Origin: Nitrospirota bacterium
GTDB lineage: Bacteria; Nitrospirota; UBA9217
Reading direction: 5' to 3'
Assembly (NCBI GenBank): GCA_029858565.1
Contig: JAOUEV010000075.1
Span: 1 to 13,300, forward strand
Length of the DNA: 13,300 bases
The notes beneath the pieces were generated by a model that saw only the letters and a program-made list of their open reading frames with translations, was not told the DNA's origin and ran no database searches. Made by a program: the position numbers and the translations under genes. The first letter of the stretch is position 1, and each line of letters begins with the position of its first letter. Positions 42 to 13,300 of this stretch are shown piece after piece.

Positions 42-488
42 TTACAATCCTACAAACCTGTCCACCCACTGCAAGAATTCAAGTTTTTCCTTTGGCGCGC
101 CGTCCATCCTGCCGAGGTGGCCCCCGTTCTTGAACATGATAAAGGTCGGGGTCGCGCGGGTCTGGAAACGCCGGGACAGCTCAGGTTCAGCGTCCACGTC
201 GATCTTCAGAACCTTCAGCCTGCCCGCTTTCCAGTTGGCAATATCGTTCACCACCGGCTCGATCATCCTGCAGTAGCCGCACCATTTGGCCCAGAACTCG
301 ACCAGAAGGAATTCCGGCCATGTTGACAGCTCCCGGTCGAATGTGGCGGTCGTGCCGTTTACCGGCGCGTGGGGAACCGTCAGGGGGGTCTTGCAGGTGC
401 CGCAGTGGGGCTGTTCCGCGATGCGCGAGCGGGGGACGCGGTTCAGGGTGGAGCAGCCGGTGCAGCGGATGAGGACGGTGTCGGGCAT
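42..488 (-). CDS. trxC: Thioredoxin 2 (TrxC) with N-terminal zinc finger
   Basis: N-terminal CTGC...NR(V)P...CGTC Zn-binding motifs, VEFWAKWCGYC active site, cis-Pro loop ATPTF; 148 aa. Confidence 0.9.
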   Translation of the reverse strand: MPDTVLIRCTGCSTLNRVPRSRIAEQPHCGTCKTPLTVPHAPVNGTTATFDRELSTWPEFLLVEFWAKWCGYCRMIEPVVNDIANWKAGRLKVLKIDVDAEPELSRRFQTRATPTFIMFKNGGHLGRMDGAPKEKLEFLQWVDRFVGL

Positions 489-849: not shown

Positions 850-1308
850 TCAATAACTGGTATAGCTGATTAGGTTCTCGATCCACTTAGCCAGTTCGGA
901 TTTTTCCTTGAACGGTCCATCCATGCGTATCACGAACTCCCCGGCCTTGTACACAAGGTAGGACGGCGTTTTCATGACCTTGAAGCGCTCGACCAGGAGG
1001 GCGTCGTGATCAAAGTCCACCTTCAGCACCTTGAGCTTTCCCGGATGCTTCACCATCAGTTCGGAGAGCAGTGGGTCCGAGATCCGGCAGAAGACGCAGG
1101 AGTTGGACGTAAAGGTGACCACCAGGGTCTCGGGCCAGTAGGAGACATCGCGGTCAAAGGCATCCTGCCGGGCGAAGATCGGCTGGCGCGGCACGGTCAG
1201 GACGGTCTTGCAGCTTCCGCAGCGGGGCTCGTGGTCGATGCGGGACGCTTCCACCCGGTTAAGGACCAGGCAATTGGTGCATCGTATCTTGATAAAATCG
1301 TTCGCCAT
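850..1308 (-). CDS. TrxC-like Zn-finger thioredoxin paralog with atypical active site (SCVFC)
   Basis: CTNC..LNRV...CGSC Zn finger; TFTSNSCVFC at the WCxxC position; KTPSY cis-Pro loop. The C-terminus RMDGPFKEKSELAKWI parallels RMDGAPKEKLEFLQWV of 42..488. Confidence 0.85.
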   Translation of the reverse strand: MANDFIKIRCTNCLVLNRVEASRIDHEPRCGSCKTVLTVPRQPIFARQDAFDRDVSYWPETLVVTFTSNSCVFCRISDPLLSELMVKHPGKLKVLKVDFDHDALLVERFKVMKTPSYLVYKAGEFVIRMDGPFKEKSELAKWIENLISYTSY

Positions 1309-3058: not shown

Positions 3059-3892
3059 TTACTCTTTCCTCTTCCAGTCCCAATCAATATACCACGTGAG
3101 ATAGAACTCGAATCCCTTGGTACGCTCTTCCAGTATGGGATAATACTGCCAGGAGTAATCAGCTCCAATGCGGTACAAAGGTTTCTTGAGCTCCATGCCC
3201 ACCGCGGGTCCGCGGACATCATAATAGTCCTCAAGCTTCGAACGGGCCCGGTACCGGTACTCGGCGTAGGTATTCAGCACAAAACCGCCGGGCAGGGTGG
3301 TCCAGTCGATCCCCTGGTTGATCCAGCCCATGCCGCCGGAGCCGGTGACTCCCCGGGTATCATGGAACAGATTGAACCAGATCGCTCCCGGCAGGCCTGT
3401 TGATCCGGGAAAATGCACATCCGCATTTTTGGTCAGGTCCCATCCCTTGTATCCAGCCAGGTAGATCTCCCGGCTGGTCGTGCGGCGCGGTCCGTCGGGG
3501 TAGTTGGGCATGGTCTCCCAATAATAGTCCGCCCCGAACCTGAGGAAGTCCTTCTTGAACTCCATACCCACAGCCGGACCCTGGGCGCTGTAGTACTCGG
3601 GCTGGCGCGACCGGTCGCGGTACCGGTATTCGGCAAAGGTGTTCAGCACCACATCGCCGGGCAGGGTGACCCAGTCGATCCCCTGGTTGATCCAGCCCAT
3701 GCTCCCGGAACCGCTCAGGGTGCTCGAACTCTCGGTTACTACGCCCCAGGTGGAGCCGGGGTAGCCTTCGATCTCCCAGGCGAAAGCGCGATGCGGGAAA
3801 CAGAGCATGAGCGTGATGCATCCCAGGAAGAGGATAGTCGGCGTCATGCGCATTTCTGGGAGTTGTTCTTTTCTATGTTCAATCGATGACAT
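3059..3892 (-). CDS. Secreted, probably outer-membrane beta-strand-rich protein made of two tandem repeats of about 123 aa
   Basis: Signal-peptide-like segment (ILFLGCITLMLCFPHRAFA/WE). Two copies of MGWINQGIDWxTLPGxxVLNT(F/Y)AEYRYR...GPAVGME(F/L)KK...R(F/I)GADY.W, with alternating aromatic/polar strands. The start is uncertain: the ORF opens at 3931, the ATG at 3892 has AAGGA upstream, and ATGs at 3853 and 3847 are also possible. Confidence 0.7.
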   Translation of the reverse strand: MSSIEHRKEQLPEMRMTPTILFLGCITLMLCFPHRAFAWEIEGYPGSTWGVVTESSSTLSGSGSMGWINQGIDWVTLPGDVVLNTFAEYRYRDRSRQPEYYSAQGPAVGMEFKKDFLRFGADYYWETMPNYPDGPRRTTSREIYLAGYKGWDLTKNADVHFPGSTGLPGAIWFNLFHDTRGVTGSGGMGWINQGIDWTTLPGGFVLNTYAEYRYRARSKLEDYYDVRGPAVGMELKKPLYRIGADYSWQYYPILEERTKGFEFYLTWYIDWDWKRKE

Positions 3893-3934
3893 AGCTTCAT
3901 TCCTTAGAGCTCCCGGTGCTCTCTGCGCCAAAGC

Positions 3935-5491
3935 TCACTTCAGCGCCTCCCGGGACAAGTATATCCATTTCCGTTCCTTTCCGTAGAAGTAATACTCATC
4001 ATCCATCTTCACCACCAGGTTGTTCTGGTTCTCCGCTGCAAAGGATGTCTGCGGAATGCTGTCGATGAATGCCCGGGTGGCATAGCGGTCCGTGACAAAG
4101 GGGCTTTGCCCGGCAAAGGCCTCGATCGTGAACGCCAGGGAAAGATAGCTCGACGGCTTGTCTATGATCATGTTTCTGCCGGCCGCCCCGGTCCGGCGGT
4201 CCTTGCTGATCAGCTTCAACCCCACGGGCACGATGGTGATGCGGGGCAGGGGGATGTCGCGGAGCCCCGGCGTTTCTATGGCATTGCCGCGCACCGCCCT
4301 GCCGTGCTCTCCCGCGACGATCACCAGTACATCCCGTCCCGAGGCCGCGAGGGTCCCCATGAACCTCGAAAGGTCGTCAAGAAGGCTCTGGAGAAATTCC
4401 CGATACTGCTCGCGATTGTCCCGCTTCCACCACTCCCGGTCGTCGGTCCAGTGGGACCCGTCATGAAGGCTCACGGAATTATAGTACAGGGCGACCTTCT
4501 TCTCGCTTGACCTCAGGCGGTTCTTCCACCATTGTTCGAGCACGTCATAGTCTGCATAGACCGGCGTATCGTCGAACATGTACTTCCTGGCCTCCAGGTT
4601 CGACGGCGCAAAAGGCGCGGCGTCCAGGTGGCCCAACTGCCGGAGCTCCTGGTCGAATTTGCCATAGGTGCCGTTATGATTGCGGCTGAACCGGATCGCG
4701 TATCCCTGGTGACCCAGTCCCTTCATGAGCGAGCAGTCCCCGGGCAGGGTGTTGTACAGGTCGGCGTGCCTGCGCTGGCCGCAGTTCCCGTTCAGGAGCC
4801 TGATGGCCGCGGGATTGCTGTAAGTGGTTACGGTATTGAAGTTGGTGAACAGGAAGTCGAACTGTTTGAAGAATGGATGGTCCTGCATGCCCAGTTCCCG
4901 GAGATCGTCCCAGGCAAGGGAACAGATATGGAGGATGAGAATGTCGAAGTCCCGCGACGTTGCCTGCGGCGGCACCGGCCGGATGACACGCATGGACTCG
5001 GCATTGAAGAACGACCGGACATGGGCATCGACCTCATCAGGAGATCTCCTGCCGTGTTCGCCGGTGACGAAGACCAGCGGGATCAGAAGCAGGACTGCCA
5101 TGCCTGTTGCAGCCGATCTTCGGTACTTGCGGACAAGGAAGGACAGGACCGCGATAACGGTAAAGACCGCAAGTTCTTTCGGCACAAGGAGCCTCAGGAA
5201 GAATTGATAGAGATATTCCCGCGAAGGCATGCCGTTCTGCTGAAGCATGGTGATGGCATGCAGGGGGTCCGGAAGCCAGGACTCGCGCCAGATCAGCAGA
5301 ACAGCGATGATCATCGCCAGTGCCTGCTTTGCCATGAGCGCCAGCGTGCTTTCGCCAAAGCGCTTCGGCAAGGGGAAAACGATGAACGCGAGGAACAGCA
5401 GGTTCAGGAGCACATCAAGACGCACGTATCCCCGGTAATGGAGATAGAGCTTGGCCAAGAAGTAGAAGGTCCAGATTCCCATAGGTGTCAC
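3935..5491 (-). CDS. bcsG: Cellulose phosphoethanolamine transferase BcsG
   Basis: N-terminal TM region beginning MGIWTFYFLAKLYL; FDILILHICSLAWDDL; TTYSNPAAIRLL..CGQ (catalytic Ser); SLHDG; GEHG; GLRDIP. The start is GTG 5491 or ATG 5482. Confidence 0.93.
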   Translation of the reverse strand: MTPMGIWTFYFLAKLYLHYRGYVRLDVLLNLLFLAFIVFPLPKRFGESTLALMAKQALAMIIAVLLIWRESWLPDPLHAITMLQQNGMPSREYLYQFFLRLLVPKELAVFTVIAVLSFLVRKYRRSAATGMAVLLLIPLVFVTGEHGRRSPDEVDAHVRSFFNAESMRVIRPVPPQATSRDFDILILHICSLAWDDLRELGMQDHPFFKQFDFLFTNFNTVTTYSNPAAIRLLNGNCGQRRHADLYNTLPGDCSLMKGLGHQGYAIRFSRNHNGTYGKFDQELRQLGHLDAAPFAPSNLEARKYMFDDTPVYADYDVLEQWWKNRLRSSEKKVALYYNSVSLHDGSHWTDDREWWKRDNREQYREFLQSLLDDLSRFMGTLAASGRDVLVIVAGEHGRAVRGNAIETPGLRDIPLPRITIVPVGLKLISKDRRTGAAGRNMIIDKPSSYLSLAFTIEAFAGQSPFVTDRYATRAFIDSIPQTSFAAENQNNLVVKMDDEYYFYGKERKWIYLSREALK

Positions 5492-5571
5492 TCGTGCATT
5501 TCAGGATGCGATCCGGCCTAAAGAACAGTATTGAACCGCCACGGCGCCATGGAAGCGGGTAAATCTCCTCA

Positions 5572-6618
5572 TCACCTCGCTCTATTTTCCCATCCCCCTG
5601 TCGCGAGCAGATAAAGACTGAAGGAATAGTAAGCGTCCTTCTCGGTCTTGAGTCTTTTCCGCGCCTCTTTCAGGAGGCGTTCCGCGAGCGCCTTCTTGCC
5701 CAGTTTCCGGGCGGCAGCAGCATAGATGGCGTAGTACCCGGCGTAAGCGAGTTTGAGCGATTCGCTGTCCTTTTCCAGATCGATCCAGAGCGGCAGCCTG
5801 CCGCTTTTCTGGTAGTGCTCCAGCAGAGCTGAAACGCCCTTGGGATAGCGCGAACGGTCCTCGGACCCAAGCATGAGCAGGACGCGGACAGCATCTGCCC
5901 CGAAGTAGGGGTCCTTTCCCGGCGCAAGCGCGATCCGGTCGTTTTCCAGGACCACCCAGTTCGCAGGAAGGCCGAGGCTCCCGAAACTCGCCCCCTTGAT
6001 CAGGAACAGGCCGTCATTGCGCACCGCCTCCCAGAAGTCCGGTTGGTCCGCCCTGGCAAAGGCGCGGTATGCCGGGAAGATCAGGTACGAAGGATTCAGC
6101 ACCACGCTGTTACCGTCCGTGAATCCAAAGGCTCCGGGCAGCAGATAGGTGCGGCCGTACCGGGTGACCGCAAGGACCGAGCGGATGCTCGCGATGATCT
6201 TCCGCGCCTCCTCACGATAGTCCGGCGAGTGCCAGGCATCGCTCGCCTTGAGCAGGGCGAAAGCGATCAGGATATCGCCGTCGGTCGCATTGTTGCTGTC
6301 GAGCACCTTCCATGCATTGTCCGGCCTTTTTCCCCATTGCCAGGCGAACAGACCGTCGGAACGGACCTGGAGATTATTCTTTGTCCAGGTCCAGATCCTG
6401 TCAAAGGCGGCCCGGTCCCGGTGGATCGTTGCCAGCAACATGCCGTAACCCTGGCCTTCGGAATGGCTGATCTGGTCCTGGGCGTGGTCGATGATCCGTC
6501 CATCGTCGCTCAAAAAGGACCTCTTGTAGAGCTCCCACATCGTCCGGTCCCGTGCCTCAGCGATGCCGCAGAAGACGGCAGTAAGTACGAGGCAGAGGCT
6601 AATGGCCCGGAGTGGCAT
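5572..6618 (-). CDS. bcsZ: GH8 endo-1,4-beta-glucanase BcsZ
   Basis: Signal peptide; SEGQGYGML; FDRIWTWT; NNATDGDILIA; LNPSY; DAVRV. Overlaps the end of bcsB by 20 nt. Confidence 0.93.
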   Translation of the reverse strand: MPLRAISLCLVLTAVFCGIAEARDRTMWELYKRSFLSDDGRIIDHAQDQISHSEGQGYGMLLATIHRDRAAFDRIWTWTKNNLQVRSDGLFAWQWGKRPDNAWKVLDSNNATDGDILIAFALLKASDAWHSPDYREEARKIIASIRSVLAVTRYGRTYLLPGAFGFTDGNSVVLNPSYLIFPAYRAFARADQPDFWEAVRNDGLFLIKGASFGSLGLPANWVVLENDRIALAPGKDPYFGADAVRVLLMLGSEDRSRYPKGVSALLEHYQKSGRLPLWIDLEKDSESLKLAYAGYYAIYAAAARKLGKKALAERLLKEARKRLKTEKDAYYSFSLYLLATGGWENRAR

Positions 6619-11327: not shown

Positions 11328-12530
11328 ATGATAATCATCGAACCATATGGTGCGCGGCCGGTAACGGACCAGCGGGTGGAGATCGTTGAGCGCAAGGGCG
11401 TGGGCCACCCGGACACGCTTTGCGATTCCATGATGGAGGCGGTATCCATCGCGCTCAGCAGGGAATACCGCAAGACCTTCGGCACGATCCTCCATCACAA
11501 CATCGACAAGGGCCTGCTCGCCGCGGGCAGGGTGGAGAAGCGTTTCGGCGGCGGCAAGGTGACGGAGCCCATGGACCTCATCATCGGCGACCGGGCGACA
11601 TGGTCGGCCGGAAAGAAGCGTATTGACGTTGAAAAGATCGCTGTCGCCGCTGCGCAGGAATGGCTTGGCAGGAACATGCGCTTTGTTGATCCCAAGAAGC
11701 ATGTGCGCTATCGGGTCGTGCTGCGCCAGGGGTCCGAGGAACTGACGGATATCTTTTCACGCAAAGGGAAGGTCCTTGGCGCGAATGACACCTCTGCCGC
11801 AGTGGGGTATTACCCCTTAAGCCCCACGGAGCAGGCAGTGCTGGGGCTGGAGCGTTTTCTCAATTCAGCTGACTTCAAGAAGATCTTTCCCGAGACCGGC
11901 GAGGACATCAAGGTCATGGGCCTGCGAACAGGAGATGACCTGGACATCACGGTGGCCATGCCGATTCTGTGCAAGTACGTAAATTCGGAAAAAGAGTACT
12001 TTGTGCGAAAAGCGATCATCCAGCGGATCATGGAAGGTTATCTTGACAGGTTCACCAGCTTCAAGTCTGCGGCGGTCAACTTCAATACCCTTGATGTGAT
12101 TGGCAGGGATATGAACGGCATTTACCTCAGCCTGCTCGGCACCTCAGCCGAGGACGCGGACTCGGGCCAGGTGGGCCGCGGCAACCGCGTGAACGGTCTC
12201 ATCTCGTTGAACCGGCCCATGGGTACGGAAGCGGCCGCAGGCAAGAACCCCGTAAGCCATGTAGGAAAGATCTACAACGTCCTGGCCCATAGGATCGCGC
12301 AGCGCATATATAAGGAAGTAGGCGGCCTGCGGGAAGTGCAGGTGCTGCTGCTCTCGCGCATTGGCGCGCCGATCAATGAACCCCAGACAGCCTCGGCGCA
12401 GGTGCTGCCGGTCAAAGGAAAGGTGACGGGTTCGATCGTCAGAAAAGCGGAGAAGATCATGCAGCGGGAGCTGAATGGGATCGCGAAGTTCTGCGGGGAG
12501 TTGAGCAGGGGGGATTATCCGGTGTGCTAG
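11328..12530 (+). CDS. mat: Archaeal-type S-adenosylmethionine synthetase (methionine adenosyltransferase)
   Basis: EIVERKGVGHPDTLCD, ILHHNIDK, ANDTS, GEDIKVMGLR, GTSAEDADSGQVGRGNRVNGLI, EAAAGKNPVSHVGKIYN and SRIGAPINEP are motifs of the archaeal MAT family. Canonical bacterial MetK instead has ESVTEGHPDK and GAGDQG. Confidence 0.93.
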   Translation: MIIIEPYGARPVTDQRVEIVERKGVGHPDTLCDSMMEAVSIALSREYRKTFGTILHHNIDKGLLAAGRVEKRFGGGKVTEPMDLIIGDRATWSAGKKRIDVEKIAVAAAQEWLGRNMRFVDPKKHVRYRVVLRQGSEELTDIFSRKGKVLGANDTSAAVGYYPLSPTEQAVLGLERFLNSADFKKIFPETGEDIKVMGLRTGDDLDITVAMPILCKYVNSEKEYFVRKAIIQRIMEGYLDRFTSFKSAAVNFNTLDVIGRDMNGIYLSLLGTSAEDADSGQVGRGNRVNGLISLNRPMGTEAAAGKNPVSHVGKIYNVLAHRIAQRIYKEVGGLREVQVLLLSRIGAPINEPQTASAQVLPVKGKVTGSIVRKAEKIMQRELNGIAKFCGELSRGDYPVC

Positions 12531-12584
12531 GAACGCGGCGCTGACGCGCCGCATGGCGCGTCGCAGTCGAGCGCCAGGTTATTT
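12528..12584 (-). mobile_element. Integron attC site (57 bp), last of the array
   Basis: The minus strand reads AAATAAC-CTGGC-GCT(C)GAC-TGCGAC-GCGCC-ATGC-GGCGC-GTCAGC-GCCGC-GTTCCTA: R'' AAC, 5-nt spacer, L'' with one extra base pairing to L', a terminal hairpin, and R' GTT. It overlaps the stop codon of the cassette ORF. Confidence 0.85.
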
Positions 12585-13077
12585 ATCCTTCTGCTTCTTG
12601 TTTCGCTTCATACCAAGTCTTATATTGTTTGGCCCATTCAAGATTATCGGCTTTCCATTGTTTGTTAATTTGAACGCCTTCCTTCGCGTTTTTCTCCAAG
12701 CCACGATACTTTTTGAAAATTGAGAACGGCTTTATTAACCAGAAGAGCCAGTTGGGGATTTCTGTTGGTGTTTCCGAACCGTTTTCAATTGCACGGCATA
12801 CAAAATGATATGATCGTTCTTCGTCACCGCTTTTAGACCAATATCTGGCAGACAGCAAGAGCATGTCTAAATCATTCGGAAAACGGGCAAGGTATTTATC
12901 TGCATATATTATCGAATTGGCAATATCGTCGCCCCATTCATAACAATAGGCGAGCATGGCAATCGCAAAGTAATCTTCCTTGTTTTCACTCAGCATGCGC
13001 TTGCATGATTCGATGGCGGCGGGATAATTCTTAGAACCAATTGCCCTTGCTGCTTTCATTTGTTCTCGAAATGACAA
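12583..13077 (-). CDS. Integron cassette gene: hypothetical TPR-like alpha-helical protein
   Basis: 164 aa, TTG start with SD AGGAG, visibly AT-rich compared with the flank. Helical repeats (NYPAAIESCKRML; AMLAYCYEWGDDIANSIIYADKYLARFPND) look TPR-like. It fills the space between two attC sites. Confidence 0.75.
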   Translation of the reverse strand: MSFREQMKAARAIGSKNYPAAIESCKRMLSENKEDYFAIAMLAYCYEWGDDIANSIIYADKYLARFPNDLDMLLLSARYWSKSGDEERSYHFVCRAIENGSETPTEIPNWLFWLIKPFSIFKKYRGLEKNAKEGVQINKQWKADNLEWAKQYKTWYEAKQEAEG

Positions 13078-13098
13078 CGTGGCTCCTATTCAATACAA

Positions 13099-13155
13099 AA
13101 ATAACACGGCGCTGACGCGCCTCAAGGCGCGTCGCAGTCGAGCGCCAGGTTAATT
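13099..13155 (-). mobile_element. Integron attC site (57 bp)
   Basis: The minus strand reads AATTAAC-CTGGC-GCT(C)GAC-TGCGAC-GCGCC-TTGA-GGCGC-GTCAGC-GCCGT-GTTATTT. Only 3 differences from 12528-12584 in the 43 nt between the core sites, two of them in the loop. Confidence 0.88.
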
Positions 13156-13300
13156 TACTCCATGTTCCATTTGCCATCGTGGTATTTCAGTCGCTTTTGT
13201 TCTCGTGCTTCATAAGTTGCCTTAGAATAATGAGGGGAATTCACATCATGCGAATCCTTGCTGAACGATATTTCTGTTTCGCTTATCCAGTGAACATCAG
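13155..13300 (-). CDS. Partial (3' end) hypothetical gene of the next cassette
   Basis: Open frame from the window edge (...DVHWISETEISFSKDSHDVNSPHYSKATYEAREQKRLKYHDGKWNME) to TAA at 13157-13155, which abuts R'' of the attC. AT-rich; not in the ORF track. Confidence 0.6.
   Translation of the reverse strand, partial: DVHWISETEISFSKDSHDVNSPHYSKATYEAREQKRLKYHDGKWNME

Follow-up and report, generated by a model that had tools for sequence, protein, structure and literature searches.

A short integron cassette array, very probably of the integrase-less CALIN type, at the end of a Nitrospirota contig

We analysed a 13,300-nucleotide stretch of DNA (the window) from an uncultivated Nitrospirota bacterium, which is the entire contig C48 (JAOUEV010000075.1) of a 3.9-Mb genome assembled in 144 contigs. 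Close to its right-hand end the window holds two 57-bp repeats. It is very probable that both repeats are attC sites and that the window's right-hand end is the distal part of a short array of integron cassettes without an integrase of its own, that is, a small array of the CALIN type (cluster of attC sites without integron integrases). Below we describe the two sites, the cassettes that they delimit, the upstream end of the array and the integrases encoded elsewhere in the genome.

Structure and kinship of the two 57-bp sites

Alignment of the two full 57-nt repeats, attC a and attC b (Table 1), gave 50 identical positions out of 57, counted from the sequence, and a repeat finder reported the pair 12532-12584 / 13103-13155 as 53 nt of 92% identity with starts 571 nt apart. 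When both copies were folded as DNA hairpins the minimum free energy was -18.3 to -20.9 kcal/mol (z-scores of -3.8 to -4.3) and none of 200 shuffles folded as well. These results bear out a preliminary description of the window, which had reported two near-identical 57-bp imperfect palindromes 571 bp apart. It had also reported that each palindrome overlaps the stop codon of an AT-rich open reading frame (ORF), and this is indeed the case at both copies: attC a overlaps the TAA stop (12583-12585) of a 164-aa minus-strand ORF, attC b overlaps the TAA stop (13155-13157) of a minus-strand ORF that runs off the contig, and the G+C content between the repeats is 41-46%, against 50-67% elsewhere in the window and 57% genome-wide. 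Likewise the leading minus-strand GTTATTT (13105-13099) proved exactly complementary to the AAATAAC at 12584-12578, as had been claimed.

In the passages of Nivina et al. (2016; PMC5027507) that deal with site structure, the bottom strand of an attC site has 5'-AAC-3' in the R' box and is cut between A and C, and this AAC together with the GTT of R'' is the sole conserved stretch of attC sites. The same passages place extrahelical bases opposite AAC, usually G16 and a conserved T23/24, sometimes with a third at position 20, and a 6-bp stem from the first to the last of them; they describe the central spacer as usually 5-6 unpaired bases per arm and give a length of 57-141 bp, a range that agrees with the earlier remark that 57 bp is at the small end. 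In the window's plus strand the 5' arm contains AAC and the 3' arm, opposite to it, contains the surplus bases. This indicates that the window plus strand would be the recombining bottom strand, and the cassette ORFs are therefore expected on the minus strand, which is where they are observed.

The pairing is conserved well beyond the window. In 13 sites of the same genome 93.6-94.6% of the cells of the alignment are paired and 7 pairs have changed on both sides, whereas slid-partner controls gave 28-53% pairing (30-41% for sliding by 1-3 columns in the free-hairpin register). Five other genomes of its taxonomic family supplied 42 further sites, in which 94.9-95.2% of the cells are paired and 8-10 pairs have changed on both sides. 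The two A-T pairs of AAC/GTT are kept in 13/13 sites of the genome and in 42/42 sites of its relatives, and the third pair is C-G in 12/13 and 36/42 of them, respectively, and otherwise U-G. In the stem adjacent to the ends the sequence varies between sites while complementarity stays, and all these sites share a conserved core.

Two registers of pairing fit the sites about equally. In the canonical-like register (94.6% paired) the 3' arm leaves G, A/T and T unpaired, separated from one another by 3 bp, which puts them at positions 16, 20 and 24 from the outer end of R'' if the numbering rule is taken as deduced from the passages of PMC5027507 mentioned above. In the second register, which is thermodynamically favoured, the same 5' bases pair with an inner near-repeat to give a 5-bp apical stem and a 6-nt bulge, without the canonical extrahelical pattern. 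Both are kept by compensation: a change in the first base of the shared 5' stretch is accompanied by changes in both of its candidate partners. The pair counts in the genome itself are GC 10, AU 1 and UA 1 for one register and GC 10, AU 1, CG 1 and UA 1 for the other; in the relatives they are GC 33, UA 3 and AU 1, and GC 31, UA 3, AU 2, CG 1 and GU 1. One register would be the stable free hairpin, and the other would present the canonical G16/N20/T24 extrahelical bases.

To find related sites we used nhmmer followed by a covariance model (R1), with which 150 of about 2,400 first-look candidates were scored. This led to the identification of at least 36 related sites in the genome at E <= 1 and at least 29 strong sites at E <= 0.001. 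The model is strongly strand-specific, copy b scoring 73.8 bits on the plus strand and 19.4 on the minus strand. To avoid circularity a second model, R2, was built without the two copies of the window; it gave 64.5 bits for attC b and 63.5 bits for attC a, both on the plus strand, and the next best score in the window and contig C124, which overlaps its right-hand end, was 18.1 bits, on the minus strand of copy b. Outside the genome, model matches were found in 16/18 other genomes of the family and in 1/12 genomes from other families of the phylum, this last match being weak. The preliminary description had suggested a search for further copies of the repeat core: its 26-nt core has 4 copies in the 3.9-Mb genome at <=3 mismatches (reversed control 0). 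Dispersal, which the same description had named as a refuting observation, turned out to be mixed, 13 of the at least 29 strong sites lying in four arrays and the rest standing alone or at the end of a contig.

A second attC type (core TGAG-GRGCG ... CGCGAC-YCWCTCGA) was observed on C36, C67, C104, C137, C143 and C60. Common to it and the window's type are the extrahelical G and a T-N-A-N / N-T-N-G-A box, and the two types are intermixed within the same arrays.

Cassettes, arrays and integrases

Cassette 1 lies entirely in the window and cassette 2 runs beyond it (Table 1); their ends were placed at the crossover position given in the passages of PMC5027507 cited above. Comparison with copies elsewhere shows, at the level of sequence, that both cassettes moved as units bounded at the AAC/GTT cut site. 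For cassette 1, a homologue of the ORF at 61% identity was found in Nitrospirae bacterium GWC2_57_13, where it is flanked by attCs of this family, has the equivalent orientation and likewise starts with TTG. Its DNA resembles the window's from the upstream GTT through the ribosome-binding site, the TTG start and the ORF to the attC, while the two upstream attCs are dissimilar. In runs X2 and X3, which are probably one data set filed twice, cassette 1 was found at 100% identity over 92 and 151 nt with another flank beginning exactly at 12532, and soil run X4 holds 253 nt of the cassette 1 ORF with 3 differences. As for cassette 2, its first 184 nt recur at 98.9% identity at the end of contig C82, there preceded by a different attC, and the two copies (C82 and C124) agree up to GATTAA and diverge at the next base, which is the integrase cut position. 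The protein encoded by cassette 1 gave weak Pfam tetratricopeptide repeat (TPR) matches below the cut-offs and has 16 homologues at 57-89% identity; that of cassette 2 belongs to no known family and has three homologues besides itself.

Arrays of such sites were found on C67 (7 sites), C38 (5), C60 (4) and C36 (3). All 16 inter-site intervals examined have their longest ORF on the top strand, where it usually fills the interval, and the G+C content of the intervals is 37-45% compared with 57% for the genome. If a cassette was formerly a circle, its start should complement its own R''. We found that the 4 variable bases of R'' match the cassette start at 4/4 positions in 4/15 adjacent pairs, the window's included, versus 11/365 non-adjacent pairs, and a permutation test on the summed matches gave about 1e-4.

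Two genes of the genome score above the curated cut-off of 265 bits for integron integrases, with 391 bits on C137 and 361 bits on C128, and none of 14 control genomes exceeds it. Both adjoin an attC in the canonical divergent orientation; the site beside the C137 integrase is of the second type and that beside the C128 integrase is of the window's type. Among 31 genomes, 8 have an IntI above the cut-off, every one of them within the family. Taken with the AAC/GTT ends, the covarying hairpin, the model scores and the cassette arrays, these two integrases uphold the attC architecture proposed at the outset.

Both integrases are of a long form (464 and 477 aa) with a conserved N-terminal extension of about 150 aa, which gives a second match to the SAM-like domain PF13495. 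The extension is common to at least 175 public proteins, mostly of 460-490 aa and many of them labelled integron integrase, from metagenome-assembled genomes (MAGs) of Nitrospirae, Thermodesulfovibrionales or Deltaproteobacteria, and most IntI reading frames of the relatives are 480-525 aa. A third candidate integrase, in L015 (C26), was rejected: it is Xer-like, reaches 194 bits against the cut-off of 265 and lacks the middle of the IntI model. This recombinase is directly followed by an IS91-family transposase (474 bits), and the two, at 61-2259, adjoin a cassette with a strong attC at 3160-3227.

Table 1 Features of the window and of the related contigs (C numbers); window coordinates unless a contig is given.
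Feature	Position	Strand	Remarks
attC a	12528..12584	- (top strand = window minus)	57 bp, last site of array; on + strand R' AAC 12532-12534, R'' GTTATTT 12578-12584, GTT 12578-12580
attC b	13099..13155	-	57 bp; on + strand AAC 13103-13105, GTTAATT 13149-13155, GTT 13149-13151
Cassette 1	12534..13104	-	571 bp, AA^C crossover to crossover; 27-nt leader with AGGAG, ORF, attC a
164-aa ORF	12583..13077	-	TTG start; small TPR-like protein
Cassette 2	13105..13300 plus 546 nt beyond the window, to C124:673	-	742 bp; window has the 3' part
Cassette 2 ORF	13155..13298	-	last 47 codons of a 223-aa ORF; own ribosome-binding site
Integrase	L017 (C137):1164-2558	+	long form
Integrase	L016 (C128):1620-3053	-	long form
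attI-like copy, C124	C124:677-849		junction triplet AAT; likeness ends before the ribosome-binding site; no IntI remnant
attI-like copy, C137			junction triplet AAC, then AAGGAGG and integrase start
attI-like copy, C40			junction triplet AAC, then AAGGAGG; integrase residues 4-42 only
S-adenosylmethionine (AdoMet) synthetase gene, archaeal-type	11328..12530	+	PF01941, 533 bits; flank, outside the element

Leftward of the repeats the window carries ordinary genes, namely two thioredoxins, a cellulose synthase operon (bcsA, B, Z, G) and the archaeal-type AdoMet synthetase, whose TAG stop lies 1 nt short of the AAC in attC a. Two further repeats were observed in this part. A 106-nt direct repeat (3239-3344 / 3608-3713, 86% identity, 369 nt apart) lies within a 290-aa minus-strand ORF (3059..3931) that has no Pfam match, is located between a cyclase-like gene and bcsG, and appears to encode an internally repeated protein. 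A 39-nt inverted repeat (510-548 / 745-783, 82% complementary, 196 nt between the arms) sits between tandem thioredoxin-2-like genes at 42..488 and 850..1308, both on the minus strand.

The upstream end of the array and alternative readings

The last 127 nt of the window are the first 127 nt of C124, the sole such link for either end of the window among all 288 contig ends. The cassette 2 ORF continues in frame across this overlap, and a Logan contig spans from 13123 to 546 nt past the window end. Beyond cassette 2, C124:677-849 matches at 85% identity the part of C137 that separates the first cassette from the integrase start, and has 77-78% identity with a third copy in C40. In relative G015 the same stretch precedes the core integrase match by about 500 nt, a gap that would fit the long-form N-terminal extension. 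On the strength of these three comparisons we read C124:677-849 as a putative attI/promoter region. It is followed in C124 by a two-component system; a model scan of C124 detected no further attC and tblastn detected no IntI remnant. Two other candidates on this contig were discarded. A GATTAAC at C124:780-786 was considered as the start of cassette 2 (6/7 match, with about 0.4 estimated by chance), and the C82 copy set the boundary at C124:673 instead. An AT-rich hairpin at C124:805-859 was considered as a degenerate attC; it has no AAC/GTT geometry, scores 7.9 bits and has its 3' half outside the part shared with C137.

The attI-like region contains two near-palindromes, at L031 (C124):790-815 and in the matching parts of C137 and C40: TTCTGTAATATCCAGAA, and AATATTCC-AAAA-CGGAATATT just ahead of the integrase ribosome-binding site. 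They could be operators or integrase-binding sites. In C40 (L056, C40:41000-49340, about 3845-4150) only integrase residues 4-42 come after the attI-like region, and a restriction-endonuclease-like gene (PF22558) comes next. It is a further integron platform in decay, flanked left and right by attC-like sites.

Several observations weigh against the reading of the repeats as attC sites of a small cassette array, or against parts of it. The central spacer has only a 2x2 unpaired loop and the next 5 positions form a covarying stem with GC/CG swaps, and PMC5027507, in the part consulted on this point, has recombination by IntI1 reduced by a paired spacer; because the spacer is described there as only 'usually' unpaired, we treat the paired spacer as a variant and not as an exclusion. 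Our attC models were made from sites of the same genome and show membership of the site family, not fit to a general attC model; a scan of 12300-13300 at E <= 10 against Rfam, which does not include IntegronFinder's general attC model, gave two chance-level matches, none to an attC family. As many as 16 of the at least 29 strong sites lie outside arrays of two or more, some of them alone inside long contigs (C18, C19, C41). In 10/15 adjacent pairs R'' matches the cassette start at only 1-2 of 4 bases, and in one pair at 3 of 4. No excised circle or deletion was seen in the public-run data, which were searched at contig level only, and a promoter scan found no sigma-70-like promoter facing the cassettes, although such a scan may not suit this phylum. 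An exact-pattern scan of metagenome contigs for the junction of cassette 1 with attC b gave 0 matches and carries no weight. Finally, the depth in the likely source run is 23.9 for the contig of cassette 2 and 12.5 for that of cassette 1, and cassette 2 has a second downstream junction. This indicates that cassette 2 is present twice, and the join to C124 is consequently not certain. There is a G/A difference at 13173, where the window has G, and two differences fall in C124:490-673.

One copy of cassette 2 is headed by the relic of C124 and the other by the attC of C82, and which of them belongs to the window is about an even choice. A continuation into C82, which we hold to be only slightly short of an even chance, would give the array three attC sites and no attI relic, the relic of C124 then heading the other copy. 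The doubled depth and the second junction speak for it, as does the copy of the 5' part of cassette 2 at the end of C82, and the 127-nt end overlap shows only adjacency in the assembly graph. Against it, C124 is the only one of the 288 contig ends to share the terminal 127-mer with the window, and the ORF runs on in frame into C124. No integrase is found upstream of the attC in C82, where the contig carries a Y1 transposase with repetitive extragenic palindrome (REP)-like repeats, a PIN/HicB pair and core genes. There, in L027 (C82:31000-37843) at 4898-6491, three REP-like copies (about 32 nt, GTAGGTCGGGTA...ACCCGAC) flank the PIN/HicB-like pair and the Y1 (IS200-like) transposase, in what looks like the arrangement typical of REP-associated tyrosine transposases (RAYT). 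Eleven loci around the AdoMet synthetase in relatives (55-72% protein identity) showed no attC, and none of the C124 neighbours within about 1.3 kb downstream; synteny being too weak, these loci do not show the pre-insertion site.

The window array could also be the far end of a complete, longer integron whose intact intI and further cassettes upstream are hidden by assembly breaks. We consider this improbable. The contig does end within a cassette, cassette 2 is a two-copy repeat that leaves the assembly graph ambiguous, and two intact intI genes sit on short contigs (C137 and C128) with arrays running off the contig ends. The 5' end of cassette 2 occurs in only two contigs, however, and in neither does an intI adjoin it: C124 passes from the attI-like relic directly into the two-component system, with no IntI remnant, and C82 passes from its attC into the Y1 transposase region and core genes. 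That the repeats are dispersed intergenic palindromes of the REP or bacterial interspersed mosaic element (BIME) kind, or transcript-end hairpins unrelated to integron recombination, is hardly credible even though many sites stand outside arrays, many loci are seen in well-assembled relatives and a consensus scan marks part of attC b as terminator-like, since the sites are strand-specific, have a fixed orientation beside intI (coordinates in relatives G014 and G009 read alike), are accompanied by ORFs on one strand in every interval, have cassette copies whose likeness ends at the AA^C crossover, and differ in sequence from the genome's real REP-like repeat by its Y1 transposase.

The small integrase-less array thus remains our preferred reading. 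The window has two sites 571 bp apart with no IntI match on C48, C124 or C82, as a CALIN would, the contig join being itself deduced; a complete integron would have intI next to attI and the array, which is found on neither C124 nor C82, and a sedentary chromosomal integron would have more than about 10 similar attC next to intI, compared with 2-3 sites here. The preliminary description had offered a sedentary chromosomal integron or a CALIN that continues beyond 13300. Of these the CALIN stands, with 2-3 sites and no adjoining intI, and the sedentary integron does not; the array does continue, by one more cassette of 742 bp, and then stops. Its proposal to look for intI or attI to the right was half rewarded, with an attI-like region on C124 and no intI on C124 or C82.

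In the mechanism that we propose, the plus strand as single-stranded DNA would fold into an imperfect hairpin at each site, and each cassette would be one ORF plus its own attC, read on the minus strand. The array would stop 1 nt after the stop codon of the convergent AdoMet synthetase gene. From there it would comprise two cassettes and then either an attI-like relic whose integrase gene, ribosome-binding site included, is gone (C124) or a third attC next to ordinary chromosomal DNA (C82). As no integrase gene is adjacent, excision and insertion would occur in trans and would fall to one of the two integrases that the genome encodes at other loci, whose action on these two sites we infer. Recombination between attC sites would release circles of 571 bp, of 742 bp or of both together, and the ORFs would presumably be expressed by read-through from upstream.

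One cassette start was also observed repeatedly. It reads ...TTCTACACCTTC|AAC on the bottom strand and follows at least 4 different attCs (C67:1-113, C137:1-91, C69 at about 879 and, in run X1, a loose end at window position 13103), which indicates that the cassette is multi-copy and probably explains why several contigs break there.

Comparison with known integrons and significance

CALINs are said to have been defined originally by Cury et al. in 2016. Sedentary chromosomal integrons, of which the Vibrio superintegron is an example, have lineage-specific attC sites. An array like that of the window is an element of a well-known kind, as integron cassettes and integrase-less attC clusters are textbook matter. 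With known attC sites (59-base elements), in particular the short sites of 57-70 bp in mobile integrons and the sites with three extrahelical bases, such as VCR2 and attC-oxa2 in the part of PMC5027507 that treats them, the window's sites share the AAC/GTT ends, the imperfect hairpin, the 57-bp length and, in one register, the extrahelical G, A/T and T opposite AAC with 3 + 3 bp between them. Overlap with the end of a single ORF is common to both, and so, to judge from sequence comparison, would be an A^C crossover. Two features differ. Known sites, as far as the same source describes them, usually have 5-6 unpaired spacer bases per arm, in place of which the window's type has a covarying stem with a 2x2 loop, and an internal near-repeat in the 3' arm gives the window's attC its second, more stable register.

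CALINs, as defined in the parts of the IntegronFinder 2.0 paper used here (PMC9024848), resemble the window array in having at least two clustered attCs and no intI, which is true of either possible continuation. The window differs in that one continuation keeps an attI-like region, with the triplet AAT and not AAC, that has 85% identity with the corresponding region of an intact integron of this genome. In those parts CALINs are proposed to be degraded integrons, draft genomes are noted to inflate CALIN counts, and a threshold of >10 attC sites is used for sedentary chromosomal integrons. An array with no intI fits the degraded-integron proposal, and the genome here is a draft. The RefSeq complete genomes surveyed there in 2022 are given as holding only two CALINs for the phylum Nitrospirota. 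A preprint (bioRxiv 10.1101/2022.02.06.479319) has Nitrospirota among the phyla with sequenced integrons, and states that attC likeness tracks taxonomic origin. Our system shares with sedentary chromosomal integrons an attC type common to the family (the 16/18 versus 1/12 genomes above) and cassettes that are poor in functional annotation and mostly of unknown families; it differs in having 2-3 sites at the locus, two attC types mixed in the genome's arrays and sites spread over many loci. With REP/BIME elements and their Y1 (RAYT-like) transposases it shares short G+C-rich intergenic palindromes in many copies, whereas the window's attC family is strand-asymmetric, bounded by AAC/GTT and tied to single ORFs and IntI.

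The genome offers a clean in-silico case of cassette movement, with one cassette found at two junctions, one attI-like and the other with an attC, and it indicates that in MAGs of this kind contigs break at repeated cassettes. An attC with a paired spacer that is shared family-wide could serve to test the sensitivity of general attC models and the generality of rules derived from IntI1 and Vibrio. A limited literature search found nothing published about paired central spacers or long-form integrases, and we do not claim that they are unpublished. A more speculative thought, which we hold to be rather unlikely, is that the integron system of this Nitrospirota family is a structural variant that combines the paired spacer, two mutually exclusive L-box registers kept by compensation, and long-form integrases. 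If the paired spacer and the long-form integrases do belong together, the site may be a conformational switch that needs remodelling by the integrase, and in that event the geometry of the synapse may differ from that of IntI1 and VchIntIA, which perform poorly on paired spacers.

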